The notes under the pieces are model-generated. The model had not been told where the DNA came from. It ran no database searches and saw only the letters and a list, made by a program, of their open reading frames with translations. Shown here piece after piece: positions 2,957 to 50,410 of a stretch of 64,000 nucleotides of DNA. The DNA is from an uncultured Clostridia bacterium. Lineage in GTDB: Bacteria > Bacillota > Clostridia > TANB77 > CAG-508. Each line of letters begins with the position of its first letter. The stretch's first letter is position 1. Made by a program: the position numbers and the translations under genes. The stretch spans positions 46,494-110,493 of the forward strand of contig CAKPOA010000002.1 of assembly GCA_934169575.1 (NCBI GenBank), given 5' to 3'.

Positions 2957-3679
2957 ATGTTAAATTTTTGTGCAATTGATGATGACACAGAAACATTAAA
3001 TAATTTAGCAAAAATGCTTGAAACAATTTTTATGCAACATGATATAGATGCAAGTTTAGTTTTAAAAACATCTAATGCTGATGAATTGTTGAGTTTCGCA
3101 AATAGTAATAAAATTGATGTTTTATTTTTAGATATAGATTTATGTCAAAATTGTTCTGGATTAGATTTAGCAGAGAAAATTAGAAAAAATGATAAAGACT
3201 GTTATTTTATTTTTGTGTCTGCTTATCCAGAATATGTTTTTCAAACCTTTAGTCATAAAACCTTTGATTTTATTTTCAAACCTTTTGCTTTGCAAAGAAT
3301 TGAAAAGTGTGTTTTGCGTCTTGTAGATGATATTGTTAGTTCACCAAAAAGATTTATTAGAATCAATAATAAAAATACTATAATTGATGAGAGAGAAATT
3401 CAATATATTAAAAGAGATGGTATGAAAGTTGTTTTTCATACTAAACTTTGTGATTATGAAATATATAGTTCTATTTCAAAAATAGAATCAAAACTTCCAG
3501 ATAACTTTGTTAGATGTCATAAATCATTTATTGCTAACATTGATAATATTACTAGAATTGAACCATCAAATAATCTAATTTATTTTAATTCTTCAATATG
3601 TGATATTGGTCCGAAATATAAAGCTCATTTTATAGAACAAGTTCAGTCGTCAGAAAAAATCTATGAAAATCTCATATAA
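2957..3679 (+). CDS. LytTR-family response regulator (REC + LytTR DNA-binding domain)
   Basis: N-terminal receiver (DVLFLDIDL) and C-terminal LytTR motif (FVRCHKSFIANIDNI). ATG at 2957 follows the RBS GAGGGGG; the ORF track starts at GTG 2945. Confidence 0.85.
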   Translation: MLNFCAIDDDTETLNNLAKMLETIFMQHDIDASLVLKTSNADELLSFANSNKIDVLFLDIDLCQNCSGLDLAEKIRKNDKDCYFIFVSAYPEYVFQTFSHKTFDFIFKPFALQRIEKCVLRLVDDIVSSPKRFIRINNKNTIIDEREIQYIKRDGMKVVFHTKLCDYEIYSSISKIESKLPDNFVRCHKSFIANIDNITRIEPSNNLIYFNSSICDIGPKYKAHFIEQVQSSEKIYENLI

Positions 3680-33486: not shown

Positions 33487-34246
33487 CTATTCCTCTTTCT
33501 TTTTTTTTATTTGCTTGCCTTTGTCTAATAGATACTAATGCCTGATACGCATTAGGATAACTTCCATCTCTATCTTGTTTTTGATTATATACTAATATAG
33601 GTAAATCCTCAGCAGTTTGACCTCTTATAAGAACTTTTATGTTTTCTATATCAGAAGAACTACTCATAATACCTACACTCCTTTTAAAACCTTCATCTGC
33701 TTCATCAATAAAGCTCTCACTTGTTTTTCTATAAAAATTCCTCATTGTCCTTCTTTGTTCTTGCTCTCTTAATAAAGCTGAAACCTTACTTTGCTCATTA
33801 GATACAGCTAATGCATATACTTCTATATCAAAACCCTGAGCCTTTGCTCTATCAATTACTACTTGTTTCAAATACTCATATATGCGCATTGTTCCTATAT
33901 GAATAAAACTTATTTTATTTTCCAAACAATATTCTAGCATTTCTTTTTCTATTCTTATTGAAAATTTATTTGTACTTTGCACAAAGTCAGCATTATCATC
34001 TTCTATTTCTTTTAATCTTGGATGATACATCCTATACTTATCCATATCTATTGATACAAATGAAACATTTGGATAATCTTTCATTATCTTCTTAGGTAGT
34101 GCCGATTTTCCTGATGCTGGTTGTCCTGCTGCAAAAATCAATCTAGGGCTTTTTTCTGATTGTGCTTGTCCAACGTAATCTCTTTTTACTTTTTCAAATG
34201 CTTCTTGATATTCATCTTCTGTATAATCATAAGATTTTGTTTCCAT
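33464..34246 (-). CDS. Zeta-toxin-family P-loop kinase
   Basis: Walker A AAGQPASGKSALPK in a context typical of zeta toxin/AAA_33 phosphotransferases. 260 aa with an acidic/basic tail. No epsilon-like antitoxin gene lies upstream. Confidence 0.65.
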   Translation of the reverse strand: METKSYDYTEDEYQEAFEKVKRDYVGQAQSEKSPRLIFAAGQPASGKSALPKKIMKDYPNVSFVSIDMDKYRMYHPRLKEIEDDNADFVQSTNKFSIRIEKEMLEYCLENKISFIHIGTMRIYEYLKQVVIDRAKAQGFDIEVYALAVSNEQSKVSALLREQEQRRTMRNFYRKTSESFIDEADEGFKRSVGIMSSSSDIENIKVLIRGQTAEDLPILVYNQKQDRDGSYPNAYQALVSIRQRQANKKKERGIDDDEGDR

Positions 34247-34321
34247 CTAAAAAACTCCTTTCTAATTTATTGACTTTTTCTCTATATTGGAGTATTATAT
34301 ACTCATATGGAGATGATATAT

Positions 34322-35059
34322 ATGAATTTACAAAATAAAACTGCAATTATTACTGGTGCAAGCCGTGGTATCGGTTTGGCTACATGTCAAAGATTTATTA
34401 ATGAGAATATTGAAAATCTTATTATGATAGGGGCTAATAGCCAAAATTTGTCGTTAGCAAAAAATCAATTAAATTATAACAATATATTTACATACCAATG
34501 TGATTTATCAGATAAAAAATCTATTGATAATACTTTTGACAGAATTTTATCTAAATTTACTCATATTGACATTCTTATAAATAATGCTGGTATAATCGAT
34601 GACTCCTCTTTTGTTGAAATGACAGACATTCAAATGAAACATGTATTAGATGTGAATTTTTATGGTTCTTTTTATTGTATTAAAAAGATATTGCCTATCA
34701 TGATTATGCAAAACTATGGTAAAATAGTTAATGTTTCTTCAACATCAAAGTTTGGTACCGTTAATAAATCTAATTATGCGGCATCTAAAGCAGCATTAGA
34801 TGCATTAACAAGAACCGTATCTAAAGAAGTAGCCGAATACAATATAACTATTAATTCTGTTGCTCCTACACTAATTGACACTGATATGTTAAAGTCTATC
34901 CCTACAGATACTTTATCTAAACTAGTTAATAATTCGCCTATAAAAAGATTAGGGAAACCAGAAGAAATTGCATCTATTATATATTTTCTTTCTTCTGATG
35001 ATTCATCTTACATTACAGGAGAAACATTAATTGCTTCTGGTGGCTTATTTACTATCTAA
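34322..35059 (+). CDS. Short-chain dehydrogenase/reductase (FabG-like)
   Basis: TGASRGIG (TGxxxGxG), NNAG and the YAASKAA catalytic YxxxK. It is the only plus-strand gene of the cluster. Its 3' end overlaps the convergent methyltransferase by 15 nt. Confidence 0.9.
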   Translation: MNLQNKTAIITGASRGIGLATCQRFINENIENLIMIGANSQNLSLAKNQLNYNNIFTYQCDLSDKKSIDNTFDRILSKFTHIDILINNAGIIDDSSFVEMTDIQMKHVLDVNFYGSFYCIKKILPIMIMQNYGKIVNVSSTSKFGTVNKSNYAASKAALDALTRTVSKEVAEYNITINSVAPTLIDTDMLKSIPTDTLSKLVNNSPIKRLGKPEEIASIIYFLSSDDSSYITGETLIASGGLFTI

Positions 35060-35797
35060 TTTTTGCAATATAAAAATTTGCTTTGGAGATTGGAGATTAA
35101 ATTCATTGTAATTATAATCGCCAATTTTTTCTTTTAATATAAATTCACTGTTATTTATTAATTCTTCTAATTGCCCAGGAAAATATTGTCTCATAAAAGT
35201 ATTACTTTCTATATATAAACTTAATTTTTCATTAACATATATATTAGTTAAATAATTAATTCTGGTTGTTTTATCATATTTTCTTATTTCATATAAATCA
35301 ATATTATCTTTATAATACTCACTATAAAAACTATATCTATACTCTTTTGTTTCTTCTATATTTAAAAATCTCATATTAGGATTAAATATATCTATAATCA
35401 ACAATCCTTTATTTCTTAACACATTATAACATGATTTTAAGAAATTGTCTACATCTTCGTCATTTTTCAAATGTTGTAGAGAGTTAAAACCACATATTAC
35501 TATATCAAACATACCTAATTTTTCTTTTTCCAGTTTTCTCATATCTCCCCAAATATATTGTATATTTTCATTCTTTGTTTTTGCAATATCTAACATATCT
35601 GTAGAATAATCTAATCCTATGTACTCTTTTACATTTTCACATATTTCTTTTGATAATCTTCCTGTACCACAAGCTACTTCTAATACTCTCATATCACTCT
35701 TTAAATATTTGTTATAAAATTTTATATCTTCGGTTTGTACAACTTTGTTCATGTCATCATAAAATATATGATCACCATAGTATGTATTACATTTCAT
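35045..35797 (-). CDS. Class I SAM-dependent methyltransferase
   Basis: Motif I VLEVACGTGRL and motif post-I GLDYS. Confidence 0.85.
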   Translation of the reverse strand: MKCNTYYGDHIFYDDMNKVVQTEDIKFYNKYLKSDMRVLEVACGTGRLSKEICENVKEYIGLDYSTDMLDIAKTKNENIQYIWGDMRKLEKEKLGMFDIVICGFNSLQHLKNDEDVDNFLKSCYNVLRNKGLLIIDIFNPNMRFLNIEETKEYRYSFYSEYYKDNIDLYEIRKYDKTTRINYLTNIYVNEKLSLYIESNTFMRQYFPGQLEELINNSEFILKEKIGDYNYNEFNLQSPKQIFILQKLDSK

Positions 35798-35815
35798 ATA
35801 AATTCTCCTTTTCTA

Positions 35816-36691
35816 TTATAAGTTTAAAAAGTTTTGTATATTTTCATATAATATTTTGTTTTTTATTTCTTTTTTAATATTTAGTGCATTTATCAAATTT
35901 ATTTCATCAATTAGATTATAGTTCCACCAGCATGAGAAAGGATAACTTGAACCAAATACTATTTTATCTGACATTCCTTTATTATTTACCAAATCTTCTA
36001 ATATTTGTGTTGCTTCCATATTTGAATATTGAAAGGCATCATAAGCTGGAAATACATTTTGATTGTTTTCAAACCATCTTAAATGTCCACTTATACCACT
36101 TGTTTCTATTACCACATTATCCATTTGTTTTGCCATTTCTAATGCCTTTACTGAAGCTCTTAATAAATGTCCCATTATGAATTTCTTGTTTGGAAATGCT
36201 CTTGCAAAATTTATTGCATCTTGTGGTCCATAATTTCCTAATTTTTGTACTCTTCCAATATCTTTTTCATTCAATGCAGCAGTGTGTATATAAATGAAAA
36301 AATCATTATTTTTTGAAAATTCTATAAACTCTTTATTTGCCTCTATTTTTCCAACATCAATATTGCATAATATAGGCCAAATTACAATCCCTGCTTTGTT
36401 ACATTTTTTTAAATATCTCTCAACATCTAAAAAGCATTCATGATAATTTATATTTAATGCAAACACTGGAATTAAATTATTATTTTTTTTATATAACTCA
36501 TATATCGTTTTGTTTTCTTCCGTATATTTTCCATCTTTTGAACTTGGAAAAGGATATATTAATGCTTTATTATCTATTCCATAATTTATTTTATTGAATT
36601 CTTCTAAATATTCTTTATGTGGTCTTTGTGGTAAATTTTCTGATAGCCAATAATCTGTTCCCACTAAATAATGAGCATCTATAAACTTCAT
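35816..36691 (-). CDS. Amidohydrolase-family (TIM-barrel metal-dependent hydrolase) protein
   Basis: MKFIDAHYLVG is the N-terminal metal-binding strand. IYIHTA, MGHLL and the overall length are typical of amidohydrolase_2. I take the start as ATG 36691. Confidence 0.65.
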   Translation of the reverse strand: MKFIDAHYLVGTDYWLSENLPQRPHKEYLEEFNKINYGIDNKALIYPFPSSKDGKYTEENKTIYELYKKNNNLIPVFALNINYHECFLDVERYLKKCNKAGIVIWPILCNIDVGKIEANKEFIEFSKNNDFFIYIHTAALNEKDIGRVQKLGNYGPQDAINFARAFPNKKFIMGHLLRASVKALEMAKQMDNVVIETSGISGHLRWFENNQNVFPAYDAFQYSNMEATQILEDLVNNKGMSDKIVFGSSYPFSCWWNYNLIDEINLINALNIKKEIKNKILYENIQNFLNL

Positions 36692-36692
36692 T

Positions 36693-37856
36693 TTACACAA
36701 CCTTTCCTTTACTATTAAATTCACTTACAGTTCCATATTTTGCTTCTCGTATATCATCTAATTTTTTATCATTTAATTTATAATAATATATATCTAAATT
36801 CTCTTTTGCATTTTTTATAATTTCTTTTATACCTGATAAATCATGTATTATTTGTTTCCCATCATTTATAGAATATACTTTGAAACTTTCTATTCCATCT
36901 TTTATATTTTGAACTATAATAATCCTTACACCTTTTCTTAAATATTGATTCTTAATTGTTTTTAATTTTTTTACTCCTAAATTAGCATCAAAATAAATTC
37001 TATTCTTTCTCTCATCTTCTTGTATTAAATTTCGGATCATAGCACTTTTAATTTGTTTATTATAAATTATCGCTATATCCTTATTTTCATATATAGAAGG
37101 TAATCTCATACCAAAATTATCCATGTTGTTATATGCTAAATATGCAAAAATCTTTTGACTATATCCTATATCAAATATATATTTATTTTTAAATTCTTTG
37201 GAAACATTAAAACTATCTAATAATTCATCATCTAATAGGCTACATTGTAAAATAGTTTGAGTTTCTCCTTTTTCATTGATAGCACTTACCATATACACTT
37301 TTTCAGAATATCCTTTTACTCCATCATATTCTAAGACAACAACTGGTAAGTTTATACTTTTACAAAATTTTTTCATTTTTTCAACAACATATTTAATAGC
37401 CTCATTTTTATTCATTTTATCTATTGCTAAATTAAATTGTAATAGAGGTGATATATAGTAGTCTCTACTCATTGGTATTTGCTTTGAATCCAAAAGCCTT
37501 ATCATATAATAATAACTCAATAATGCACATTTATTTTCTTTATCCATTTTTTCTAAATTATATGGTAATGCATCTGTAATATACATATACTCTTCATTAT
37601 CCTCATCCTTAAAAAATGCTATGGTAGAATCATATTTTTGTATTCTATCTTTATATTTGTTTGAAAATTTATTAATTTTTTGAATTTCTTTAGGATAATT
37701 TATTTCTATATTGAAATCCTTAGAAAAACACTTTAAAAATGCTTCTATAGTAATATTTTGCATTTTTAATCCGTCTTCTGTCCATAATGGAAATCCCTTT
37801 GCAATACCATCAGGATAAACTAAATTCAACATTCTTAAAGCTTCTTTATAATCCAT
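36693..37856 (-). CDS. Degenerate class IIa aminoacyl-tRNA-synthetase-like protein (ProRS/ThrRS-like core + anticodon-binding-like domain)
   Basis: GFPLWTEDGLKMQNITIEAF parallels ProRS G..iw..G..i...i. NEKGETQTILQCSLLDDELLDSFNV parallels dGkalQ.gTsH.LGqnFsk.F.i. IGYSQKIFAYLAYNNMDNFGMRLPSIYENKDIAIIY parallels wGvStRliga.i..HgDd.GLvlPp.iAP.qvviiP. Canonical catalytic residues are replaced (TSH to CSL, motif-3 Arg to Lys). Confidence 0.55.
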   Translation of the reverse strand: MDYKEALRMLNLVYPDGIAKGFPLWTEDGLKMQNITIEAFLKCFSKDFNIEINYPKEIQKINKFSNKYKDRIQKYDSTIAFFKDEDNEEYMYITDALPYNLEKMDKENKCALLSYYYMIRLLDSKQIPMSRDYYISPLLQFNLAIDKMNKNEAIKYVVEKMKKFCKSINLPVVVLEYDGVKGYSEKVYMVSAINEKGETQTILQCSLLDDELLDSFNVSKEFKNKYIFDIGYSQKIFAYLAYNNMDNFGMRLPSIYENKDIAIIYNKQIKSAMIRNLIQEDERKNRIYFDANLGVKKLKTIKNQYLRKGVRIIIVQNIKDGIESFKVYSINDGKQIIHDLSGIKEIIKNAKENLDIYYYKLNDKKLDDIREAKYGTVSEFNSKGKVV

Positions 37857-38295
37857 CTTTCATTTCCTCTATTTCTATAACTATTTTTATATATTGTTCT
37901 TCACTTTTAATTTCATATTTATGTTGTTCTATAAATTCCTTTATATTTTTTATTTTATCTTTATTATATATTTGAATAAATATTAAGTTGGTTTCTTTTT
38001 TCTTATATAAACCTTTTATACAAGTAAAATAATCTTTTTTCTTTTCCAAACACCCATTTATTAAATTAAATGTTGTATTAAATGTAGCCATACTATATAA
38101 TTTGTTTTTGAAAATCTTCTTTTCATAAAAATATATGTTGGAATTTTCAGGTACAATTGGTGGAATTTCTATATACAAAAATTCCATTTTTTGTAGCTGT
38201 TCTAATATATTAGAAACATTTTCTTTAAATTTATACTTAAACATATTTTCATATTCTTTCAAATTTCTAATCTCCCTTAAATTATTAAAATTCAA
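37846..38295 (-). CDS. Hypothetical protein (149 aa), translationally coupled on both sides
   Basis: No confident family. MEFLYIEIPPIVPE weakly recalls class II aaRS motif 1 (G..ei.tP..e). Overlaps both neighbours by 11 nt. Confidence 0.4.
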   Translation of the reverse strand: MNFNNLREIRNLKEYENMFKYKFKENVSNILEQLQKMEFLYIEIPPIVPENSNIYFYEKKIFKNKLYSMATFNTTFNLINGCLEKKKDYFTCIKGLYKKKETNLIFIQIYNKDKIKNIKEFIEQHKYEIKSEEQYIKIVIEIEEMKDGL

Positions 38296-39253
38296 CTCTA
38301 AATCTAATATTTTCGCTACATTCTATTTCAGCAGTAGCACCTATTGGTATTGTTATTTTTGGATTAGTATGTCCTAAGTCCACATTATACATAATAGGAA
38401 ATTCGTCTTCTTTAAAAAATTCATTTAAAAAATCATTAATAACTATATTATTATCATCTTCGACAAACTTTCCTATAATTAGTCCCTTAATATTTTTGAA
38501 AATTCCTCTCAGTCTTAGAGCTTGCATAAACGAATCAAATTCTCCCATTGAAATATTTACATCCTCTAAAAACAAAATTTTATTATCAAATACTTCTATT
38601 GGTAAATATTCCGTTCCTAATATAGTTAGTATGCTAGATAAATTTCCTCCTATTATTTTTGCTTTTGCTTTTCCTTTTTTATTTACTTTCCAAACACAAT
38701 TGCTATAATCTTTCTGTTTTACTACTGGATTTATTTCTTCTTGCTTCCAATCTATGAATTCTTTAATTTCATAATTGGGTACTTTATAATCAATACATCG
38801 ATTATTTAACAATTCATTCAAACAGTTCCAAGTATATTCATAAGGTTGTGGGTACTCGCATATTTCTGGTAAAAATGTTGGTCCATGAAAAACGATTTTT
38901 TTAGTTTTTACATATATAGCTAAAAGCAAACATGTTATATCGCTATATCCACAAAATATTTTATTGCTTTTGGAGATTTTTTCATAATCCAGCTTATCAA
39001 TTAATTGATTTGAATTATACCCACCTATACTAGCCATAATAACATCAATATTTTCATTATCTAATGCCATATATATATCTTCAATTCGTTCAACAACTGT
39101 TCCTGAATAATATGATATTTTTTTTGAGGCGTTTTTTTCAAAATTCACATTATATCCACATTTATTAAGAAACTTACATCCTCTTTTAGCTCTATTTGGA
39201 TAGTCTATTAAATAACTACTTGCAGGCGAAATTATTGAAAATCCTTTTATCAT
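38285..39253 (-). CDS. S66 LD-carboxypeptidase / MccF-like serine peptidase
   Basis: Nucleophile motif FCGYSDITCLL, C-terminal DLGHTNP (catalytic His) and N-terminal IISPAS. Confidence 0.85.
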   Translation of the reverse strand: MIKGFSIISPASSYLIDYPNRAKRGCKFLNKCGYNVNFEKNASKKISYYSGTVVERIEDIYMALDNENIDVIMASIGGYNSNQLIDKLDYEKISKSNKIFCGYSDITCLLLAIYVKTKKIVFHGPTFLPEICEYPQPYEYTWNCLNELLNNRCIDYKVPNYEIKEFIDWKQEEINPVVKQKDYSNCVWKVNKKGKAKAKIIGGNLSSILTILGTEYLPIEVFDNKILFLEDVNISMGEFDSFMQALRLRGIFKNIKGLIIGKFVEDDNNIVINDFLNEFFKEDEFPIMYNVDLGHTNPKITIPIGATAEIECSENIRFRVEF

Positions 39254-39265
39254 TTAATCACCCCA

Positions 39266-40117
39266 TTACTTTCCTATTAATGAACTATGGTATAATTCAG
39301 GATCATTAAATATATCTGCTTCTTTTTTCCTTAATATAAATATAGTAAATCCCATATGGCTATTATTCTCATTAAATAAATGCATATAATCATAATAGAC
39401 TTTCTCTAAAACATTTAAGCTTTCTTTTGACAAACTTTTTAAATGTTCCCTTGACAATATATTCTTACAAAATTCATTTATTTCACTATCAGTACACTTA
39501 TTGAACTTAAAATCAATTTCATCAAAAATTTCATCTTCATCTCTAACAAAGAATTTTTTCCAGTCATTTTTATATAATACAGATATATTTACTTGTATAG
39601 CTTTTCTTACATCGTTTACTAATTTTTCACTTGGTGTCTCTAAATAATACATTGGTACAGCTACCAAATATCCATTTGGTTTTAATACTCTCCAATATTC
39701 TTTCAATGCATTTTCCCTATCGCTAACTAAAGAGGTAACATTTCCTGCAAATACTACATCAAAAGTTTTGTCAGGAAATTTCATATTTGTTGCATCATCT
39801 AACATAAATTTTGCTTTATTTAATTCAAATCTGTTTATTCTCTCTTGAGCCGTTTTTAGGCTCATTTCATTTATGTCAATTCCTACCACTTCGCAATTTA
39901 ATAGTCTACTAAATTCTAGTGCTGAATGTCCTGTACTTGTACCTATATCAAGTATTTTACTATTATTATTTAACATTAATTTTTCTGCTACAGTTCTTAT
40001 TGTATTTAATCCTCCTGGTGTTCTATTCGTTTCCCTCACTAATCCAATAATTTCATTATAACTCATTTCTTGTATATCTTTAGGTGTTATATTTTCTATT
40101 TTTTTCATTTCAATCAT
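39266..40117 (-). CDS. Class I SAM-dependent methyltransferase
   Basis: Motif I ILDIGTSTGHSALEF, then GIDINE and FDVVFAGNV. Confidence 0.85.
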   Translation of the reverse strand: MIEMKKIENITPKDIQEMSYNEIIGLVRETNRTPGGLNTIRTVAEKLMLNNNSKILDIGTSTGHSALEFSRLLNCEVVGIDINEMSLKTAQERINRFELNKAKFMLDDATNMKFPDKTFDVVFAGNVTSLVSDRENALKEYWRVLKPNGYLVAVPMYYLETPSEKLVNDVRKAIQVNISVLYKNDWKKFFVRDEDEIFDEIDFKFNKCTDSEINEFCKNILSREHLKSLSKESLNVLEKVYYDYMHLFNENNSHMGFTIFILRKKEADIFNDPELYHSSLIGK

Positions 40118-40126
40118 TCCTTTCTT

Positions 40127-41143
40127 TTATGGTATTATGTCTTGTCCCAAAAATCTTGGCAAAATTTGGCAATCTCTTATATCATCTTTCTTAGTTAACC
40201 ACAGTATGAATCTTTCTACTCCCATTCCAAAGCCTGACGTTTGCATTGGATACTCATCCTTCATTTCTATATACCATTTATACTCATTTTCTGATACTTG
40301 ATGTAATTTAAGAGCTTCTCTCACTTCATCACCAGTACTATGTCTTTCTCCAGCTCCTACCGTTTCTCCAATTCCTATTAATAAATCTGCATTATTAGCA
40401 TATCTTTTATCAATATTTGTACTTTGATAGAACGGAACTGCTTTTATATCAAAATGTGTTATCCATACACATCCATTAAAATAATTTATTAATGCTCTTT
40501 CTCCTTCTTTAGTAATATTTCTAAATCCTAACTTATTATATTCAAAATATTTTTCATCATTTTTCAAAATATTAATTGCTTCTTCAAATGTAACCTTTGG
40601 GATTTCCTCAAGATTTATAAATTTATGTATGTGTTCACTTGTTCCTGCTATATCTATTATTTCCTTTTCATATTCCTTTAAGATATTTTTAGACAAATAT
40701 TTTAAATATTCTTCTACTAACTGCATAATATCTTCTAATTTTCCACATATCTCTGCTTCACTATGATAAAATTGACTTAAATGTCTTTTATCTTCGCTTT
40801 CTCCACGGAATGATGGCATAATATACCATACACCATTTTCAAAAAATCTGCATCCATATTCCAATGCAAATTGCATAGAATCCGCTAAATAAGTATCACG
40901 TCCACCTAATTTAATTTTTACAGGTATTGAATCACTCCCTAATCCCATTGGACTAGATATCGAACCTGTTGTAACAGGTAAGTGCATTGTTTTTATATTT
41001 TTTTCAATATAAAATAAATTTGTGTACTTAGATATTAGATTATCAATTTCTACTAATCTCTTATACCACTCGTCATTAATTGCATTTATAAAATGTCTTT
41101 GTGGAACTTTCCATAATTTTTTTGGTTCAATTAGTTCTTTCAT
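40127..41143 (-). CDS. Stand-alone class II aaRS catalytic core (AsnRS/AspRS/AsnA-like), no anticodon-binding domain
   Basis: Motif 2 IMPSFRGESEDKRHLSQFYHSEAEI and motif 3 SGFGMGVERFILWL. Only 338 aa and begins directly with the catalytic domain. RBS AAGGAG. Confidence 0.8.
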   Translation of the reverse strand: MKELIEPKKLWKVPQRHFINAINDEWYKRLVEIDNLISKYTNLFYIEKNIKTMHLPVTTGSISSPMGLGSDSIPVKIKLGGRDTYLADSMQFALEYGCRFFENGVWYIMPSFRGESEDKRHLSQFYHSEAEICGKLEDIMQLVEEYLKYLSKNILKEYEKEIIDIAGTSEHIHKFINLEEIPKVTFEEAINILKNDEKYFEYNKLGFRNITKEGERALINYFNGCVWITHFDIKAVPFYQSTNIDKRYANNADLLIGIGETVGAGERHSTGDEVREALKLHQVSENEYKWYIEMKDEYPMQTSGFGMGVERFILWLTKKDDIRDCQILPRFLGQDIIP

Positions 41144-41199
41144 ATCTCGCTCCTTCTTTTAACTACAATTATTTTTCATTTTTGTTATATAAACATTTT

Positions 41200-42311
41200 T
41201 CACATATTAATTATTTTTTCCCAACTTAAACTCTCTTTTCCAAAATGTCCATAATTTGTTGTTTGTTTATAAATTGGTTTTCGTAACTCCAAATATTCAA
41301 TAATACCTTTAGGTGTTAAATCGAATCTATTCTTAATTTTCTTAATGATTTCATCTTCTGGTAGTTGATTAGTCCCGAAAGTATTTATATATAGACATTG
41401 GCTCTTTCATACCTATTGCATAAGATATTTGTAGTTCACATTTATTTGCATACCTATTTGCCACTACATTCTTTGCAATATGCCTCATCATATATGCAAC
41501 ACTTCTATCAACTTTGCTTGCATCTTTTCCTGAAAAAGCTCCTCCTCCATGTCTAGCATATCCACCATATGTATCTACAATAATCTTTCTACCTGTTAAC
41601 CCTGTATCTCCTAGTGGTCCTCCTATTATAAAACTTCCTGTAGGATTAATATAAATATTTGTATTTTTATCTAAATATTCTTCTGGTATAGTTCTTTTGA
41701 TAACTTTTTCTATTATATCTTTTTTCATCATCTCAATATCTGTATCTCTCTCATATTGATTTGATATTAGAATTGTCTCTATTCGCTTAGGTTTATCACT
41801 TTCATATTCAACTGTAACTTGTGTTTTTCCATATGGTCTCAAATATGCTATTTCGTTTGTTTTTCTTACCTCTGCTAGTTTATTTGATAATTTATGTGCC
41901 ATCACTATTGCAAATGGCATATAAGATTCTGTTTCATTTGTAGCATATCCAAACATTATTCCTTGATCTCCTGCTCCGTCCTGTATCTACTCCTAATGCA
42001 ATATCAGAACTCTGTTTTGTGATACTTACATCTACTTTACAAGTATCAGGATTAATATCAAGTTCTTCATTTCCATATCCTACATCTTTAATAGCTTATC
42101 TTGCAATTTTTTCAATATCAACTATACCTTTACTCGTAACTTCGCTAGAAATTACTATTTTGTTTTTAGACACAAATGTTTCAATCGCAACTCTTGAATC
42201 AGTGTCTTGCTTTAAATACTCATCTAATAAAGAATCAGATATGTAATCGCATAATTTGTCTGGATGACCTTCTGTAACACTTTCTGATGTAAAGTAATAA
42301 TTTTTTAGCAT
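41200..42311 (-). pseudogene. metK: S-adenosylmethionine synthetase, inactivated (one in-frame TAA and two frameshifts)
   Basis: N-terminus [16 protein letters not shown], then IAR-TAA-AIKDVGY (stop at about 42096), then a +1 shift just before [12 protein letters not shown] (about 41975). The middle part carries GGGAFSGKD. There is a shift in a TATATATA run at about 41395. The C-terminus YGHFGKE is readable in a third frame and ends at 41200. Confidence 0.88.
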
Positions 42312-42333
42312 TTTTCTCCTTCATTTCATTTTA

Positions 42334-42368
42334 GTATAAAAAAGAACAAAGTTTTAATTACTTTGTTC
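42334..42368 (-). terminator. Rho-independent terminator overlapping the end of the 29-codon sORF
   Basis: Minus strand reads GAACAAAG-taattaaaa-CTTTGTTC followed by TTTTTTAT. The sORF stop codon sits in the loop. Confidence 0.7.
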
Positions 42369-42447
42369 CACAAAAAGGCATAACAATGCTATAAAATTTT
42401 CCACATTTATTTTGTTGTTTATTTACTAATACATTTATTTTGTTCAT
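42358..42447 (-). CDS. Small ORF, 29 aa: MNKINVLVNKQQNKCGKFYSIVMPFCGTK (candidate precursor or leader peptide)
   Basis: Not in the ORF track because it is under 60 aa. A strong RBS AAGGAGG lies 6-7 nt upstream of the ATG. It has its own near-consensus extended -10 promoter and its own terminator. It sits directly upstream of metK' and the aaRS-like operon. Confidence 0.55.
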   Translation of the reverse strand: MNKINVLVNKQQNKCGKFYSIVMPFCGTK

Positions 42448-42481
42448 AGCATTTTCCTCCTTTTTCTACATCAATATCTAA

Positions 42482-42511
42482 ATTGTATCACATTTTTTCG
42501 CCATTTGTCAA
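42482..42511 (-). promoter_or_regulatory. Sigma-A promoter driving the sORF (and, by read-through, possibly the operon)
   Basis: Minus strand reads TTGACA (42511..42506), an 18-nt spacer, then TGaTACAAT (extended -10, 42490..42482). Confidence 0.6.
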
Positions 42512-42594
42512 TGTTTTATTTATTTTTTGGCATGTATATGTGTCAATGATGTGAAACAAAGTTTTATAAAAAATTTGTAGTATCACTGAATATT

Positions 42595-42658
42595 TATCAG
42601 TGCTATCGCACTGATACTTGAAAAAATATATAAAATAAATTTTATACATTTTTTCAAG
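42595..42658. terminator. Two adjacent palindromes (terminator or IS-end structure)
   Basis: TATCAGTGC-tatc-GCACTGATA (42595..42616), followed immediately by CTTGAAAAAAT-N20-ATTTTTTCAAG (42617..42658). Lies just 3' of the transposase remnant. Confidence 0.45.
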
Positions 42659-42673
42659 TTTAAAACTTTACTC

Positions 42674-42895
42674 TTATGCTACTGCTAACTCTAGTTCTGC
42701 TATTTTTTCTTTTGGTGTTAAATAACCTAAAACAGCCATTGGGATATTGTTTGATCTTTTTAAATATGCTTTTCCTTGCTTTATCAAATCTTCTAAACTA
42801 TAGAATTTTAAATAACTATAAAATCTTTCATTATCATTTCTATGTATAAATGATAAAATAAGAGTAACCAAAAAAGGGAAAATAAAAATTACCAA
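42674..42895 (-). pseudogene. C-terminal remnant of an integrase-core (rve/DDE) transposase
   Basis: ...NERFYSYLKFYSLEDLIKQGKAYLKRSNNIPMAVLGYLTPKEK resembles the C-terminal tail of IS3/IS30-type transposases (yNn.R....Lgy.tP.e). No catalytic core remains. The ORF's N-terminus is an artefact. Confidence 0.45.
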
Positions 42896-42899
42896 AAAT

Positions 42900-44970
42900 G
42901 GTTACTTTTTTTGATATACAAATAATAATATGATATATTCTGAAAAAAATAAAAGGAGTAATCATATGAAAAAATATAAAGAAATGAAAGGTCAATTAGA
43001 AATAATGAAAACTTTAGGTATAAAACCAAATTTTAGTGAATTAGAAAGAACTTATGGAATTAATAGACATACCATAAAAAAATATTATGAAGGATATGAA
43101 GGAAGCTCACATATAAGAAATAAACCATCTAAAATAGATCCATATTATGAAGAAATACATAATAAAATAAAACTTGCAGGTGTTAATGTAATGAGCTTGT
43201 ATCAATACTTTTATGAAAGGGATAATGAAATAGGAACATATTCAAATTTTAAAAAATATTTAAAAAAGCACAATTTAAAACCAATAAAAAATATTGAAGT
43301 GCATCCAAGATATGAAACAGAAGCAGGAGAACAAATGCAATTTGATTGGAAAGAAGATTTAAAAATGATCAGCAAGCATGGAGAATTGTTTGAATTTAAT
43401 ATTTTTTCTGCTACTTTAGGATTCTCAAGATTACATGATTTTGTCTATACAAAAACAAAAACTAGAGAAGATTTAGAAAGATGTTTAATATCTACATTTA
43501 AATATATAGGTGGAGTTCCAAAGAAACTATTAACAGATAATATGAGAGCAGTTGCAGATATAAGTGATAATAAAACAAAAGTTAATAAAGAGTTTAGTCA
43601 ATTTGTAAAAGATATGGGAACTACTATAAAACTTTGTAAGCCATATTCTCCAGAAACTAAAGGAAAAGATGAAACAGCTAATAAATTTATGAATTGGTTA
43701 ATTCCATATAATCATGAATTTGAAGATGAAAGAGAATTATTGGAAATAACCACCAAAATAAGAAATAAAGTAAATGCAACAGCAAATCAAACAACTAATA
43801 TGCAACCAATATTGTTATACAAAAAGGAAAAAGAATATCTGTTAGAATTACCAAGTATGCATGTTATAAATTCATACCTAATAGATGTAGAAAAATCAAA
43901 AGTAACTAATGATTCATTGATTTACTACAAAGGTCAAAGATATTCTGTTTCCCCTAAATATATTGGACAATTTGTTAAAGCCAAACAAATTGATAATATA
44001 CTATATATATCACAATAAAGAATTAATAGCAACACATGAAATAGATAAAAAATTATTCAATTATACAAAAGAGCATTATTCAGAATGTTTAAAGATGACA
44101 ATGCCAGATAAGAATGATGATGAAATAGAAAAATTGACACAAAAAAATTTGCAAAATTTTGATAAATTGCTTAATAATAAAAATTAAAAGAAAGTGAGAT
44201 AAATGATATGATATATAATGAGGTTATAAATAATTTACAAAAACTAAAATTAGATAAAATGAGTACATATTTATCAACATATTTAGATGAAATAAATAAA
44301 AATAATATTTCATTTATAGATGCTATGTATGAATTAACAAATAAAGAAATAGAATTCAAAGAACAAAGAGCTTCTGAATTTAATATAAAAGTAGCAGGAT
44401 TTCCATTTAAAAGAACATTAAATGAATTTGATTTTGACTTTCAACCAAGCATAAATAAAAGAGAAATTATGGATTTGGCTACATTGCGATTTATAGAAGA
44501 AAAAAAGAATATTCTTCTTGTTGGTTCAAGTGGTGTAGGTAAAACACATATAGCAACAGCAATAGGGATTGAAGCAGCAAAAAAAAGAATAAGTACTATT
44601 TTATAGGTTGTCATGATTTGATAACTAAACTAAATATAGCACATCAAGAAAATCGACTCAAGGAAGCATTAAAAACTTTTAATAAGTATAAATTATTAAT
44701 AATAGATGAAATTGGATATTTACCAGTAGATAAAAACGGAGCTAATTTATTATTTCAATTAATAGCAAAAAGATATGAAAAAAGTTCTACAATAATAACT
44801 ACAAACCAAGCATTTTCTAAATGGGGTGAACTATTTAATGATAATATTTTAGCTAATGAAATATTAGATAGATTATTACATCATTCTTATGTTTTTAATA
44901 TAACAGGAGAATCATATAGAATTAAAGATAAAATTTCTAATATAGAAAATATTAATAATTCTAGTAGGAG
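42900..44970 (+). mobile_element. IS21-family insertion sequence (istA-istB), both genes frameshifted; ends not resolved
   Basis: Two-gene istA/istB organisation with diagnostic motifs. I could not identify convincing terminal inverted repeats, so the boundaries are approximate. Confidence 0.65.
42966..44187 (+). pseudogene. istA: IS21-family transposase IstA, frameshifted in a (TA)n run near 44000
   Basis: N-terminal HTH, DDE core (MQFDWKED...LLTDNMRAV...ETKGKDE). The ORF breaks at ...QIDNILYI/YHNKELIATHEI within CTATATATATC. Confidence 0.8.
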
Positions 44971-44986
44971 AATATATTTAAATTAA
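44208..44986 (+). pseudogene. istB: IS21-family helper ATPase IstB, frameshifted in a poly-A run near 44580
   Basis: Walker A VGSSGVGKTHIA, Walker B LLIIDEIGY and the C-terminus LLHHSYVFNITGESYR. The break occurs at GCAAAAAAAAGAATAAG. Confidence 0.8.
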
Positions 44987-45760: not shown

Positions 45761-46045
45761 TTATAAAAAATTATCAGTTTTATCATCCTCAATCATTCCA
45801 AGAAATTCTTTTTCCATCCACCTTTTACTTCTGCTTTTAAACAAAATTACACTATCCTTATTTTGTCTAATATATGTATCAAGTTCTGATTTCAATTTAA
45901 TAGCTTGTGATTCAAGTAATTCTCCTTCAAAAACAGAATTTTGAATATGTACTAAATACTTTTTACATGTTTTAAAAACTTTTCTTAATACTTTTTGTCC
46001 TTCTTTATTTTCTAAATTTATATCATAAACTAAAATAACATACAT
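45761..46045 (-). CDS. cas2: CRISPR-associated endoribonuclease Cas2
   Basis: MYVILVYDI... is a Cas2 N-terminal beta-strand, about 94 aa. I take the start as ATG 46045, directly after the cas1 stop. Confidence 0.9.
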   Translation of the reverse strand: MYVILVYDINLENKEGQKVLRKVFKTCKKYLVHIQNSVFEGELLESQAIKLKSELDTYIRQNKDSVILFKSRSKRWMEKEFLGMIEDDKTDNFL

Positions 46046-46046
46046 A

Positions 46047-47039
46047 TTACCACCACATTTTAAACCCTTCATATTCTTCATCTTCAATTAAATGTTTAAT
46101 CAATTTATATACCTCTAATCTCATCAAATATTCATAACTTACTTCTCTTTCTAATTTTTTATGTTTAATTTTAGTTTGCAATCTAAGATCAATCTCTCTA
46201 GTTATTTCTTTTCTAGTATTATCTTTTATATAGGTAAAATTAAGTCCTTCCTCAAAATCTTTTTCTGTTATTTGTCTTTTATTTAACATAGAAAAAATTA
46301 ATCTATCAGCTATAATTGGTTTAAAAATCTCTGCAATGTCTAAGCATAATGAAAATCTTCTTTCAGATGGTTCATGTAAATAACTTATTGTAGGATTTAA
46401 TTGAGTTTTGTAAATTTCACTTAAAACTCTTGTATATATAATTGTATTAACATATGAAATTAATGAATTGATTGCATTATCTGGTGGATTTTTAACTCTT
46501 TTTTCAAATGCTATATCTTGATTAATTATAATATTCCATGAATCATAATAAACTTTTCTAATATTTCCTTCTATTCCCATCAATTCTGGTACATTTTTGC
46601 ATAATTTTATCTGTTTCCTTAAGTAATCTATTTCAGCCATATATTCTTTTAAATCTTTTCCTCTATTATTATAATAAGTTAAATTTCTATAGATATTATA
46701 TGATGCAGCTTCTATAAAGGCTTTTGCAATATTTAATCTTTTTTCTTTATCATTATAGTGTTCAACTTGCTTTATTAATAATTTTCCAGATACAAGTGAT
46801 TCTTTTGGATAATATGTTCCTGTATAAAATCCATAATAATTAAAAAAATGTACGTTTATGCCAAACTGTGATAAAAAATTTAATAAATTAGTATTAAAAT
46901 CAAATTCAGTCATAACATATATATCATCTACTCTTTCAACTGGTATGCTTTTCTTTGTATTATCTTTGTATACTATTTCTAATGTATTATCTTTCCTTTG
47001 AAGTCTCCCACTTTTATATAAATAATATGATTGTTTCAT
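46047..47039 (-). CDS. cas1: CRISPR-associated endonuclease Cas1
   Basis: 330 aa. Lies between cas4 and cas2. Typical Cas1 pattern (YLHEPSERRFSLCLDIAEIFKP). Confidence 0.92.
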   Translation of the reverse strand: MKQSYYLYKSGRLQRKDNTLEIVYKDNTKKSIPVERVDDIYVMTEFDFNTNLLNFLSQFGINVHFFNYYGFYTGTYYPKESLVSGKLLIKQVEHYNDKEKRLNIAKAFIEAASYNIYRNLTYYNNRGKDLKEYMAEIDYLRKQIKLCKNVPELMGIEGNIRKVYYDSWNIIINQDIAFEKRVKNPPDNAINSLISYVNTIIYTRVLSEIYKTQLNPTISYLHEPSERRFSLCLDIAEIFKPIIADRLIFSMLNKRQITEKDFEEGLNFTYIKDNTRKEITREIDLRLQTKIKHKKLEREVSYEYLMRLEVYKLIKHLIEDEEYEGFKMWW

Positions 47040-47064
47040 TTCTACAATTCCCTTCTACATAATT

Positions 47065-47553
47065 TTATACATAGCATAAATCAAAGTAAGAACATTTTTT
47101 GCAAATTTTTGAATCTATAGTTTTAGGTGGCTTATCTTGTTTTACAATATTTTTAATATTTTCTATAACATTATTTAAAATATTTCTATCATCTTCTTCT
47201 AAAATAACCTTTTTGGTTTCTCTTATCAATGGGAAATCAATTTCTGCTTTGATATTTTTTATTCCCTTTTGTTCTAAATAATACATATAATATTTTAATT
47301 GCCAAATTCCCGCTTCCTCAATTGATTTTGTTTTTTTCACTTCATGCAAAACTGCACCATTATTTATAAAATCTATATTTATAGTATTATCTATTAAAAC
47401 ACCTTTCTTTTCTCTCTTATATGTTGCTTCATCAATTATTTTTCCAATTTGTACAAGTTCACTATTTTGTTCCATATTTATTTGATTGGAAAAATACCAC
47501 AATCTTCGCTCACATATAAAATAATAATAAACCATTATTCCTGTAATATTCAT
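47065..47553 (-). CDS. cas4: CRISPR-associated exonuclease Cas4
   Basis: 162 aa. One N-terminal Cys (FICERRLW) plus the C-terminal CKKCSYFDLC, the four-Cys Fe-S pattern of Cas4. Confidence 0.9.
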   Translation of the reverse strand: MNITGIMVYYYFICERRLWYFSNQINMEQNSELVQIGKIIDEATYKREKKGVLIDNTINIDFINNGAVLHEVKKTKSIEEAGIWQLKYYMYYLEQKGIKNIKAEIDFPLIRETKKVILEEDDRNILNNVIENIKNIVKQDKPPKTIDSKICKKCSYFDLCYV

Positions 47554-47565
47554 ATATTCCTCCTA

Positions 47566-49749
47566 TTATAGTTCTCGTGAATTTATTGAATACCCTTCAT
47601 CTGCCTCTAATGATAAACCACTTTCTTTATCATATTTTGTATCAATAATATATTTTCCTTTTATGTACGGACATTCTATTATATAATTACCTAATTTATA
47701 TCTATTTTTACTATTAATTGATATAAATAATTTATCAAGTTTTCTTTTTATTTCATATTTTTTCTTCTTATTATTTTCTTTCTCGTATTCATTAAATATG
47801 TTTAAATTTTCATCATAAATATTTTTTGGAATTACATCTATATTATCAATATTTCTTAAAATATGTTGTGCCTCTTTTTTACTTGTATCATAATCTATAA
47901 TATTATCTAATATTCTAAATGATTGTATAAAACTTTTGTAAAATTCAGTTTCTTGTAGCATATCTTTTGAATATAGTTTATCAACTAAATCAATTTTTGT
48001 TTTTTCTTTTAATATTTCTCCACTATATGACATTAATAATTCTATACTTTTTTCATAAATTTCTTTATCATATATATAACCTATTCCACTTGTATCTTTA
48101 ATATATATCTTAACATTTGGTATATCTTCACTATATTCTCTACTTCTATAACATCTTCCTAATCTTTGGAACAAACTATCTAATGTAGACATTTCTGTAT
48201 ACAACCTATCAAAATCTATATCTAAAGATGCTTCAACAATTTGTGTTGTTATCCATATTCCAGCTCCATTTTCACTTTTAGAAAATTCTTTAATTTTTTC
48301 TTCTTTTTTATTTCTATCTGTTTGTATAAATCTCGAATGTAATAAATTTACATTTACTACACCTTCATCTTTTAATTTTTCATACATTTCAATTGCCTTA
48401 TTTATTGTATTAACAATTATTAATACTTTTTTATTTTTAGAATTTTCTTTTATTTCTTCTATGTTTTGTTCTATTCCAGAATCTACTAATTGGATCTTAT
48501 GTCTTATTGTATCTTTTATAAATTCTCCATATTCAAATTTTATTCCCATTTCTTCTAATTTTTCTTTATATATTCGTGGAAGTGTAGCTGTCATTATCAT
48601 AAATTTTCCATTTAAATTATTTATCATTTGCAAACCTTTTAAAATAACTGCCACTATTTCTGGCGAATATGCTTGGATCTCATCAATTATTACTTTAGAG
48701 TAACTTAATGTTGCATAGATTTTTTCATATCCTCTATATTTAAATACAAATGGAAATATTTGATCTATTGTACATGTTGTAATTTTTTCATATAAATTTC
48801 GTGCTTGATCTATTTTGTTAAATTCATTTTTCTCATCTAAATAATCAGAAGCTGTGGAATGTAATAAACCCACATGTTTATATCCAATTGTTTCTTCTAT
48901 TCTGTCATAAATTGCATTTATAGTAATTCTTAATGGCAATGTAAAAAATGTTTTATCATTATCACTCCAAAGTAATGCTCCCTCAGTTTTACCCATACCT
49001 GTTGAACCAATTACTATAACATTTTTATCTTTATTTTCTTTAGCAAATTGCTGTAAATCGTTTTGTTTAAAATTCTTCTTTTTCATAAATTGTTCAACAA
49101 AATTAGATATTTCATCATTTGTTTCATCTTCAACCGGTATCCAAGCAGAACTACAATGGTCTAATCTATGTAATAGTCCTTTCATTATACAATAATCCTT
49201 ATATATATTATCATATTCAGTTATTCTAGCTTGTCCTTCTACCATTCCCAAATATACTGTTTTTAATTCTGGAACATCTATTTCTAGTTCATTTTTTATT
49301 GTCTCAATATTCGGTTCTATATCTTCTTTTATTATCTCTTCTAGTAATTCACGATTAATATGTATTGTATTAATTCTCTCATGATGATAAAAAATCGCCT
49401 GATATACCAATTTTCTTTCTGTTTTAGTCATATCATATTGCTTATATGGTACGAACATTGGTGATATTTGTTCATGTTTCATTTGTTCATTATCAAATCT
49501 AGTTTGAATAAGTGGTTCTCCTATCGCTTTTTTTATTGCATTTTGAAACCCAGAATAAACTTTTCCTACATCATGATATTTACATATTATTTCCATTAGT
49601 TGCCAAAATCTTTCTTCTGGCATATCTATTACCTGTACAATTTTTGAACCATATTTTCTTTTTAAAATTTCTAAATTTTCCAACAATTTATCTGTATGTT
49701 CTTTTATTGTTTCTATTGGATTGGATTTTGCATAATATTTATAATTCAT
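47566..49749 (-). CDS. cas3: CRISPR-associated helicase/nuclease Cas3 (HD + DEAH helicase)
   Basis: HD domain (KYHDVGKV, FYHHER), Walker A GSTGMGKTE and DEAH-like IIDEIQAY. I take the start as ATG 49749. Confidence 0.92.
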   Translation of the reverse strand: MNYKYYAKSNPIETIKEHTDKLLENLEILKRKYGSKIVQVIDMPEERFWQLMEIICKYHDVGKVYSGFQNAIKKAIGEPLIQTRFDNEQMKHEQISPMFVPYKQYDMTKTERKLVYQAIFYHHERINTIHINRELLEEIIKEDIEPNIETIKNELEIDVPELKTVYLGMVEGQARITEYDNIYKDYCIMKGLLHRLDHCSSAWIPVEDETNDEISNFVEQFMKKKNFKQNDLQQFAKENKDKNVIVIGSTGMGKTEGALLWSDNDKTFFTLPLRITINAIYDRIEETIGYKHVGLLHSTASDYLDEKNEFNKIDQARNLYEKITTCTIDQIFPFVFKYRGYEKIYATLSYSKVIIDEIQAYSPEIVAVILKGLQMINNLNGKFMIMTATLPRIYKEKLEEMGIKFEYGEFIKDTIRHKIQLVDSGIEQNIEEIKENSKNKKVLIIVNTINKAIEMYEKLKDEGVVNVNLLHSRFIQTDRNKKEEKIKEFSKSENGAGIWITTQIVEASLDIDFDRLYTEMSTLDSLFQRLGRCYRSREYSEDIPNVKIYIKDTSGIGYIYDKEIYEKSIELLMSYSGEILKEKTKIDLVDKLYSKDMLQETEFYKSFIQSFRILDNIIDYDTSKKEAQHILRNIDNIDVIPKNIYDENLNIFNEYEKENNKKKKYEIKRKLDKLFISINSKNRYKLGNYIIECPYIKGKYIIDTKYDKESGLSLEADEGYSINSREL

Positions 49750-50410
49750 TTGGCATCCTTTCACTATAAAAATAAATATTGTCTCCATCTTCATCTTGTA
49801 ATATTTCTGTTCCTGTTAAACTTTTATTTGTATATTTTTCAACATATTTTACATTTACTTTATTCCATTTTCTAATATCATCTTGTATTTTATATGTAGT
49901 ATTTAATCTATAATTAATACCCTCTACCTCACTATCTATCCATTCTGGTATATATGCACTTTTTCCTATGTTAGGTTCATCAACTTCATTAATATTTTTT
50001 AAGATTTTTATTTCATCTATTCTTACAATATCTTCGTTTCTACCTAAAGTAAATGTTTCAACTCCATTTATTATATTTTGATATATTCTATCAATTATTT
50101 CATCTTCTGCTTGTACATGAATAATTAAATTAACATTTAATAATTGATGCACATTTCTTGGCATTGATGTTACTTTATCCTTTCCTTTATACATTCTTAA
50201 ATTCTGATAATTGCTAAATATTCCTTCATAACTTCCTTGAACAGATATATTCATAGGAAAATATTCACCTGATTGTGCTCCTAATATTTTATGAAACATT
50301 CCTATTATTGTTGAATATGGTGGCAATGGATATGTTTCTGCAACTTTGGTTGCAAATGGCTTTTTATAGCATGCTGTTTCTTGGTATAGTTTTAGTTTTA
50401 AAATTTTCAT
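49739..50410 (-). CDS. cas5: Type I-B Cas5
   Basis: 223 aa. The N-terminus KLKLYQETACYKKPFA is a Cas5-type first strand. Lies between cas7 and cas3. Confidence 0.8.
   Translation of the reverse strand: MKILKLKLYQETACYKKPFATKVAETYPLPPYSTIIGMFHKILGAQSGEYFPMNISVQGSYEGIFSNYQNLRMYKGKDKVTSMPRNVHQLLNVNLIIHVQAEDEIIDRIYQNIINGVETFTLGRNEDIVRIDEIKILKNINEVDEPNIGKSAYIPEWIDSEVEGINYRLNTTYKIQDDIRKWNKVNVKYVEKYTNKSLTGTEILQDEDGDNIYFYSERMPNEL

Follow-up and report, generated by a model that had tools for sequence, protein, structure and literature searches.

A 64,000-nt stretch of DNA from an uncultured Clostridia bacterium (contig CAKPOA010000002.1, positions 46,494 to 110,493; the whole stretch is called the window below) carries on its minus strand a short leader cassette at the head of an operon. 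The cassette is composed of a strong promoter, a small open reading frame (sORF) of 29 codons with its own Shine-Dalgarno (SD) sequence, and an intrinsic terminator. Related cassettes occur in 10 diverged lineages of uncultured gut Clostridia, in which two RNA helices covary and the open reading frame (ORF) is retained, while the encoded peptide is not conserved. The interpretation that we favor, with moderate confidence, is that a ribosome-mediated transcription attenuator acts here in cis, with the sORF as its translated leader; it would be off by default and opened by a translating ribosome. The leader is an uncatalogued cis-regulatory family, new within a known kind of regulator: it has no match in Rfam, and a literature search found no paper describing it.

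The analysis removes a tempting false positive, namely a "hidden" precursor of a RiPP (a peptide made on the ribosome and then modified post-translationally). The leader drives several different operons that resemble small-molecule biosynthesis clusters, in uncultured Clostridia of the human and animal gut. If the attenuation model is true, expression of these clusters would be coupled to translation, which would bear on their heterologous activation and on how producers avoid poisoning themselves. A helix that conceals the leader's own ribosome-binding site would also be an unusual design for a leader-peptide attenuator.

The leader cassette in the window

The elements of the cassette, with their coordinates in the window, are the following.

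42482-42511, minus strand: sigma-70-type promoter with an extended -10 element (TTGACA 42511-42506, 18-nt spacer, TG 42490-42489, TACAAT 42487-42482)
42456-42462, minus strand: Shine-Dalgarno sequence AAGGAGG of the leader ORF, 8 nt upstream of the AUG
42358-42447, minus strand: leader ORF, from ATG at 42447 through 29 codons to TAA at 42360-42358, encoding MNKINVLVNKQQNKCGKFYSIVMPFCGTK
42443-42465, minus strand: 5' strand of helix P1, AAAAAGG at 42465-42459 (part of the SD) and AAUGCUAUGAA at 42453-42443 (AUG included), in both the minimum free energy (MFE) and the centroid fold
42372-42395, minus strand: 3' strand of helix P1, within the 3' half of the ORF, with anti-AUG UUUAUAGCAUU at 42395-42385 and anti-SD CCUUUUU at 42378-42372
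42338-42369, minus strand: intrinsic terminator P2, stem GGAACAAAG / CUUUGUUCU with a 7-9 nt loop that holds the TAA stop, followed by U6

The initial annotation of this DNA had already placed the promoter, the ribosome-binding site, the ATG at 42447, the ORF and a terminator with the stop codon in its loop where they are listed here. It had also noted that the last three sense codons make up the 5' arm of the terminator, and these are indeed GGA ACA AAG. On the DNA, the terminator arms are GGAACAAAG at 42369-42361 and CTTTGTTCT at 42351-42343, and the T6 run is at 42343-42338. Five independent metagenome assemblies from this species have an identical ORF, which gene callers annotate as a gene of 29 aa. 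The cassette is intact in the window, which contains a single copy of it.

Such a combination of signals is not readily found by chance. The promoter scores 11/12 plus the TG and is the sole match of such quality in 41000-43000; one terminator-like site was observed in the same interval versus 0.3 expected. The hairpin pattern occurs once in the 64 kb of the window and in none of 100 shuffles. The predicted fold of the leader RNA has an energy of -25.6 kcal/mol (z = -2.8), which 0 of 200 shuffled sequences equalled; the isolated terminator hairpin folds at -9.8 kcal/mol. At the gathering threshold, no Rfam family matched the whole window or nine related loci, the S-adenosylmethionine (SAM) riboswitches included, so that the absence of a SAM-I riboswitch remarked upon in the initial annotation stands. 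A search of 42200-42950 at E <= 10 gave chance-level matches only (E of at least 0.15).

Between the -10 element and the SD, at 42480-42466 in the window, 10/10 leaders share a conserved (G/A)ATATTATTG box. In some lineages, for instance L034 and L121 (homologous loci are given L numbers here), the box and the -10 element form a partial inverted repeat, ATAATAT-gg-ATATTAT. It may serve as an operator or belong to the first transcribed nucleotides as such; a role as an RNA thermometer was considered as well.

Two covarying RNA helices

The 10 lineages were gathered by DNA pattern scans, nhmmer and the gene contexts of the closest MetK homologues. Each has the same promoter, SD, an ORF of 22-35 codons and a GAACARAG/CTTTGTTC terminator. 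The promoter aligns across all 10 as TTtACA-17/18-TGnTAtAAT, and the cassette is always co-oriented with the operon, 30-130 nt upstream of its first gene. The nearest relative is contig L001 of the metagenome-assembled genome UBA8271, where the operon has 92% nucleotide identity to that of the window, the leader has 77%, and metK, the first gene of the window operon, is mostly deleted. This relative keeps the promoter, the SD, the ATG, the hairpin and an ORF.

P1 consists of 19-27 bp in all 10 lineages and ends 1-6 nt before the terminator. In the MFE fold of each lineage, the GG of the SD pairs with a conserved CC (plus flanking U's) and the AUG pairs with UAU; AUGAAAC is paired with GUUUUAU in 10/10 lineages. 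RNAalifold recovers both P1 and the terminator. In the alignment 91% of the cells are paired, and seven pairs have changed on both sides; the position just 5' of the AUG, for example, is U-A, C-G or A-U. The observed pairing and covariation were attained by none of 500 shuffles, and controls with slid partners were only 49-66% paired. P2 is 97% paired across the lineages, with a strength of -7.5 to -13.5 kcal/mol and a tract of 5-9 U. The most conserved nucleotides of the leader, TGTTTTATR...TTTTTGTGCC...TTTTAG, lie immediately 5' of GAACARAG. The apical part of P1 varies in sequence and length, with no conserved junctions or loops. P1 resembles an anti-antiterminator.

One might ask whether a ribosome is needed to account for these structures. 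The cassette could instead be an untranslated structured RNA, either an attenuator controlled by a protein, a small RNA (sRNA) or a ligand, or a short sRNA that ends at the terminator, in which the SD and AUG serve merely as a strand of P1 and the ORF is incidental. The variable P1 apex, with nothing aptamer-like about it, and the lack of a matching Rfam family argue against this possibility, as does the failure to find an alternative structure that would relieve the terminator without a ribosome. On the other hand, the conserved covarying features are precisely P1 and P2, every predicted fold has the SD and AUG in base pairs, and the ORF itself can be questioned: its peptide lacks conservation, the composition of the U-rich half leaves any frame open, and strain variants break the frame (see below). 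A further difficulty for this alternative is the combination of canonical SD-AUG spacing and an open A-rich half, seen in 10/10 lineages as against 3/20 of the other frames, which is hard to obtain by chance. We consider an untranslated RNA unlikely, if less so than the other alternatives.

Retention of the reading frame

A GGAGG or GGGG core is located 5-10 nt from an invariant AUG in 10/10 lineages, and the second codon is A-rich. In all 10 lineages the open frame spans 22-35 codons and extends to the terminator or past it, versus 3/20 for the two other frames. Half-wise shuffles yield an open frame with a probability of 0.08-0.24 per lineage, values that are not independent of one another because the lineages are related. 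The G of the AUG is retained although it is merely G-U paired in 9/10 lineages. Relative to the start of the terminator stem, the stop codon is found at -3 to -2, +8 to +13 or, once, +32 nt, so that a terminating ribosome would be expected to cover the 5' arm. The end of the ORF is tied to the hairpin in 9/10 lineages; L121, in which there is no stop codon before the terminator, is alone in reading past it. From these sequence comparisons the leader ORF looks to be under selection.

The tie between ORF end and hairpin would go unexplained if the cassette were simply a constitutive promoter followed by a partly leaky terminator, which damps or insulates the operon while the sORF, perhaps translated, senses nothing. 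The upkeep of a long covarying helix that hides the SD and AUG would be equally puzzling. This arrangement would fit the modest terminator (-7.5 to -13.5 kcal/mol, 5-9 U) and the finding of neither regulatory codons nor an antiterminator in the window, but on balance we judge it distinctly improbable.

The peptide is not conserved

As one of its two readings, the initial annotation had proposed the precursor of a RiPP or bacteriocin whose Cys core is cross-linked, based in part on two CG dipeptides said to be 12 residues apart; the actual distance is 11 (residues 15/16 and 26/27). Homologous sORFs are present upstream of related operons, but the Cys positions are not conserved in them, and what the homologous loci keep is the hairpin and its flanking nucleotides rather than the peptide. 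Lineages differ in whether their ORF crosses the conserved 3' nucleotide block in frame 0, 1 or 2. The L001 peptide, MKKLNNLYIQNISRCFYSFFVSFYRTE, keeps neither Cys position (Cys15, Cys26); across the 10 lineages Cys residues come and go, and the C-terminal residues vary among K, E, F and Y. Where the sequence FCAF recurs, it is always encoded by TTT TGT GCC TTT, with zero synonymous variation in a genome of ~25% G+C, and the GCC pairs with the SD. The Lys/Asn-rich 5' halves and Phe-rich 3' halves of the peptides are a consequence of base composition. Judged from the alignments, conservation in the leader is that of nucleotides, in the anti-SD strand, and not of the peptide.

A precursor role is nevertheless worth spelling out. 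The sORF product would be the precursor of a RiPP or bacteriocin, or else a pearlin/fosfazinomycin-type scaffold peptide, and would be modified by the radical SAM enzyme, the ligase resembling aminoacyl-tRNA synthetases (aaRS), the methyltransferases and the S66 peptidase of the operon. As with nisA-type RiPP genes, the layout is that of a small, strongly signalled gene, a weak terminator and then enzymes. Short precursor peptides have been overlooked before in small-molecule clusters with asparagine-synthetase-like enzymes, methyltransferases and kinases (PMC13622209), a precedent for hidden scaffold peptides, and 5/10 lineages end in a Cys-containing motif (...C-(A/C)-(L)-F stop or ...FCAFF). 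Yet RiPP precursors conserve their leader and core and co-occur with maturases, and the present ORF does neither. The conserved nucleotides are read in all three frames, and the FCAF codons are invariant, their GCC pairing with the SD. The same enzyme set occurs without the sORF in L012-L019 and L022, and the leader heads unrelated enzymes in L027 and L032, L031, L034, L035 and L121. The N-terminal extension of the radical SAM protein had been proposed as the site of a RiPP recognition element (RRE); this protein, extension included, has no PqqD/RRE or SPASM match, and its gene lies ~9 kb away from the leader. In short, the two tests of RiPP membership that were applied, peptide conservation and co-occurrence with an RRE-bearing maturase, both came out negative. 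Because the peptide is not conserved and the cassette is uncoupled from particular enzyme sets, the precursor reading is rejected as extremely unlikely.

The initial annotation had further held that a hairpin conserved without its peptide would be only a terminator. This pattern is the one found, and it counts against a precursor, but the ORF is still retained in 10/10 lineages.

The fold-back of the mRNA 3' end onto the SD also recalls type I toxins. The sORF might encode a toxin-like small hydrophobic protein, or be part of a dual-function sRNA, with its translation checked by 5'-3' fold-back pairing. The terminator follows right after the stop codon, insertion sequence (IS) and recombinase genes are present near the cassette, and several versions of the peptide have a Lys-rich N-terminus and a hydrophobic, Phe-rich C-terminus, e.g. 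MKRLYNQKLKNIILFYILVLCPFCAF. The frame of the hydrophobic half is not conserved, however, and the window peptide is not hydrophobic. Moreover, every cassette immediately precedes, in the same orientation, an operon lacking its own promoter; a scan of 41000-43000 gave no convincing antisense promoter, and the window has a single copy. The defining pair of features of type I toxin-antitoxin systems, a conserved hydrophobic peptide and an overlapping antisense RNA, was thus not found, and only the SD fold-back is similar. We regard this explanation as very unlikely.

A model for ribosome-dependent read-through

In the ribosome-mediated attenuation model, the strong promoter would produce a leader RNA of ~135 nt. 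When no ribosome is loaded, the SD and AUG would pair with the U-rich/GCC strand in the 3' half of the ORF to form P1; the P2 terminator would then form 1-6 nt beyond P1 and halt transcription before the operon, so that the switch would be OFF by default. Should a 30S subunit bind the nascent SD and AUG before the 3' strand of P1 is transcribed, the ribosome would translate through that strand and reach the stop codon, which abuts the stem, lies in the loop or lies beyond it. The ribosome would thereby occlude the 5' arm, and polymerase would read through into the operon. The ribosome itself would be the antiterminator, the peptide would have no function, and operon expression would be tied to prompt, unimpeded translation of the leader.

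When ribosome footprints were masked at three positions, folds of the full-length leader in all lineages revealed no structure competing with the terminator. This result, together with the weakness of the only competing pairing in nascent RNA and its absence from the window (see below), favors a default-OFF switch. The suggestion in the initial annotation that translation could gate read-through has gained support from the 10/10 retention of SD, AUG and ORF and from the covarying helix that sequesters the SD and AUG, but it falls short of proof.

Several considerations weigh against the attenuation model. Leader translation and read-through of the terminator are both deduced solely from sequence. 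Within the folded RNA the SD of the leader is buried, and translation would need a kinetic window, which is unusual among known leader peptides. The U-rich 3' half is free of stop codons in every frame, so that only the A-rich 5' half (~12-15 codons) tests ORF retention, and the relatedness of the lineages, noted above, deprives the shuffle probabilities of independence. No codon run or arrest motif is conserved in frame across the 10 lineages. In nascent-RNA folds of 7/10 lineages, the window not among them, the 3' strand of P1 can pair weakly with the 5' arm of the terminator, and this pairing would reverse the predicted effect of early stalling. Finally, within the species of L001, single-base homopolymer changes in strain variants alter the leader ORF. 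In L120 (~3090-3152), one T fewer makes the ORF cross the terminator, for a length of 39 codons; in L122 (~8268-8395), one A fewer truncates it to MKN*. These two variants could be assembly or sequencing errors, or could reflect weak or relaxed constraint where metK has already been deleted.

The direction of the switch and its physiological signal are likewise inferred. Candidate signals are general translational capacity or stalling at particular codons, which could stem from an aaRS inhibitor that the operons may make. Sensing of Cys codons was dropped as a candidate, since these codons are absent in two lineages, and sensing of Phe codons was dropped because the U-rich strand brings them in as a by-product. 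Pausing dependent on UTP, as in pyrBI, was likewise set aside for want of any supporting context.

Comparison with known leaders

Among Escherichia coli attenuators, the pyr leaders (pyrBI/pyrE) sense UTP via polymerase pausing, and ampC has been proposed to sense ribosome abundance. The present leader would be like both of these in that the ribosome is the antiterminator and the ORF enters or crosses the terminator hairpin, and it shares with them a U-rich tract before the terminator. In contrast, the pyrBI/pyrE and ampC leaders have no helix that hides the leader initiation region, and they show no sequence homology to the present leader. There is also a likeness to trpL, pheL and hisL, where a terminator comes after a short leader ORF and the encoded peptide is irrelevant apart from its codons. 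The Phe-rich tails (e.g. FFCAFF) resemble pheL only superficially, as their Phe codons come from the U-rich anti-SD strand and arise in any frame. Unlike trpL, pheL and hisL, the leader has no in-frame conserved tandem regulatory codons, and its operons are not amino-acid biosynthetic.

The closest parallels in overall organization may be the attenuators of resistance genes of the bmrB, vmlR, msrD, vga(A) and lmrC type, which have a short leader ORF with a terminator inside it or at its end, and in which read-through depends on the ribosome. In the bmrB-bmrCD system of Bacillus subtilis, the terminator is within the leader ORF and induction requires translation of that ORF (PMC4191407). The lmrC attenuator is located in the lincomycin biosynthetic cluster, which shows that such a switch can occur within an antibiotic cluster (PMC8546547). 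Leaders of the bmrB type have three alternative stem-loops and an accessible SD, and are induced via stalling caused by ribosome-targeting drugs; in the present leader two helices are evident, its own SD and AUG are sequestered, and no antiterminator is predicted in the window.

Riboswitches of the SAM-I/S-box and SAM-III/SMK classes normally precede metK in Firmicutes, and the present leader occupies the same position, likewise joining a 5' leader to a terminator or to sequestration of the SD. Unlike the SAM riboswitches, it has no covariance-model match above chance level even at E = 10 and no aptamer-like core, and it also heads operons without metK.

Distribution and operon contexts

The genes downstream of the cassette differ widely among lineages. 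In L027 and L032, metK is followed by NAD-synthase-like, B12-radical-SAM, alanine racemase and methionyl-tRNA synthetase (MetRS) genes; in L031, by S66, radical SAM and NifH-like genes; and in L034, by nucleoside-deoxyribosyltransferase-like, DegT and APH genes. A broken metK with radical SAM, oxidoreductase and aminotransferase genes follows the cassette in L035, and the cassette precedes a deleted metK in L118. In L020/L021 it lies between an apparently intact metK and an asnA-like gene, and in L121 it directly precedes a radical SAM gene; the leader thus heads operons without metK as well (L021, L121). Conversely, the cluster with asnA-like, S66 and radical SAM genes has the same kind of promoter without sORF or terminator in L012-L019 and L022. 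The leader module is optional.

In one of these leaderless clusters (L012:5620-5800), three tandem units of ~60 nt (...tataactt.tctctgaggcttctctacaagaataagattgtgaatg.aattatatgtag) are situated upstream of the asnA-like gene.

The leader was found in none of the 80 nearest metK loci of GTDB species representatives and so belongs to a small clade of cluster-associated operons. Scanning JGI metagenome contigs with the pattern plus a metK anchor gave 0 matches, and a relaxed pattern gave four in these contigs, three from strains of one species and one from a new lineage. The pattern scan of viral contigs had 0 matches, and blastn of the leader against plasmid and phage collections had none.

The metK gene and a candidate +1 frameshift

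The first gene after the leader, metK, turns out to be a pseudogene with a nonsense codon and frameshifts.

41200-42311, minus strand: metK pseudogene, first gene after the leader, with its own SD (GAAGGAG)
41975-41982: metK +1 site of the window, with the extra C at 41978; the corresponding sites are L027:~650, L031:~581, L032:~2337 and L125:~4985

The lesions are a TAA at 42098-42096 (codon 72), an extra C at 41978 (the ancestral +1 site) and a further frameshift near 41370, and they are identical in five independent metagenome assemblies (L002-L006). Most of metK is missing from L001 and L118 as well, and the gene is broken in L035, so that loss of the cluster-associated copy is recurrent.

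The extra C has a history of its own. Five diverged lineages carry it immediately ahead of the GAGDQG motif, and synonymous changes surround the site; none of the 68 other loci at which the metK site is readable has it. The 0 frame at the site is GGA CGG AGC, and the +1 frame is GGA [C] GGA GCA GGA GAT. Removal of the C restores a full MetK of 369-370 aa in the four lineages that carry no further metK lesion, and in these the N-terminal part of the gene has a dN/dS of 0.06-0.13 at dS > 1. The codon CGG is used 0 times in the 15,666 codons of the window's long ORFs. By these sequence criteria, the extra C has the look of programmed +1 frameshifting at an unused codon, for which we consider it a candidate; the window metK itself is dead owing to its additional lesions. 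No relevant paper on either a leader peptide or a frameshift of metK came out of a literature search.

The downstream operon and its possible product

The genes beyond metK form an operon with synteny conserved in L001, L020 and L022. Its main features are listed below.

32431-41143, minus strand: downstream operon
41143-40127, minus strand: class II aaRS-like paralog of asparagine synthetase A (asnA-like)
33486-32431, minus strand: radical SAM gene, ~9 kb and nine genes downstream of the leader
31839-32216 and 31495-31857, minus strand: remnant fragments of a leucyl-tRNA synthetase (LeuRS), residues 64-186 and 750-843, respectively

After the asnA-like gene, the order is methyltransferase, S66/MccF-like LD-carboxypeptidase, two proteins without a Pfam match, amidohydrolase and methyltransferase, and then SDR (on the plus strand), zeta-toxin-like kinase, radical SAM and the two LeuRS fragments. 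Related clusters finish in an intact extra LeuRS, and other leader-bearing operons in an extra MetRS. Self-resistance copies of aaRS are known, as is MccF immunity, and by analogy with these the cluster suggests a pathway for an aaRS inhibitor of the aminoacyl-nucleotide type. Leader-bearing operons may more generally make aaRS inhibitors, because related clusters end in extra LeuRS or MetRS genes and carry the MccF-like peptidase. In the window the pathway is decaying, as witnessed by the metK pseudogene and the remnant of the leuS paralog.

If aaRS inhibitors are indeed the products, the leader could conceivably be a sensor of the operon's own product, with ribosome progress reporting the producer's translational intoxication and thereby tuning the biosynthesis and immunity genes. 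We hold this extension of the attenuation model to be doubtful. Were it true, SAM supply would be gated twice by the state of translation, once by the leader and once by the +1 frameshift of metK at the unused CGG.

Flanking elements

Just upstream of the leader promoter, on the minus strand, are an AT-rich inverted repeat of 44 nt (42616-42659) and a hairpin, ATCAGTGC-gata-GCACTGAT (42585-42612). These two elements may be the terminator of a truncated upstream gene or the end of an IS. Two larger features follow.

42930-44986, plus strand: IS21-family element, with istA at 42930-44018 and istB split into 44208-44606 and 44618-44986
45761-49794, minus strand: cas2-cas1-cas4-cas3 set

The IS21 element is located between the leader promoter and the cas genes. 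Its istB is intact (259 aa) in the sister assemblies L003-L006, and the split form is shared by L002.

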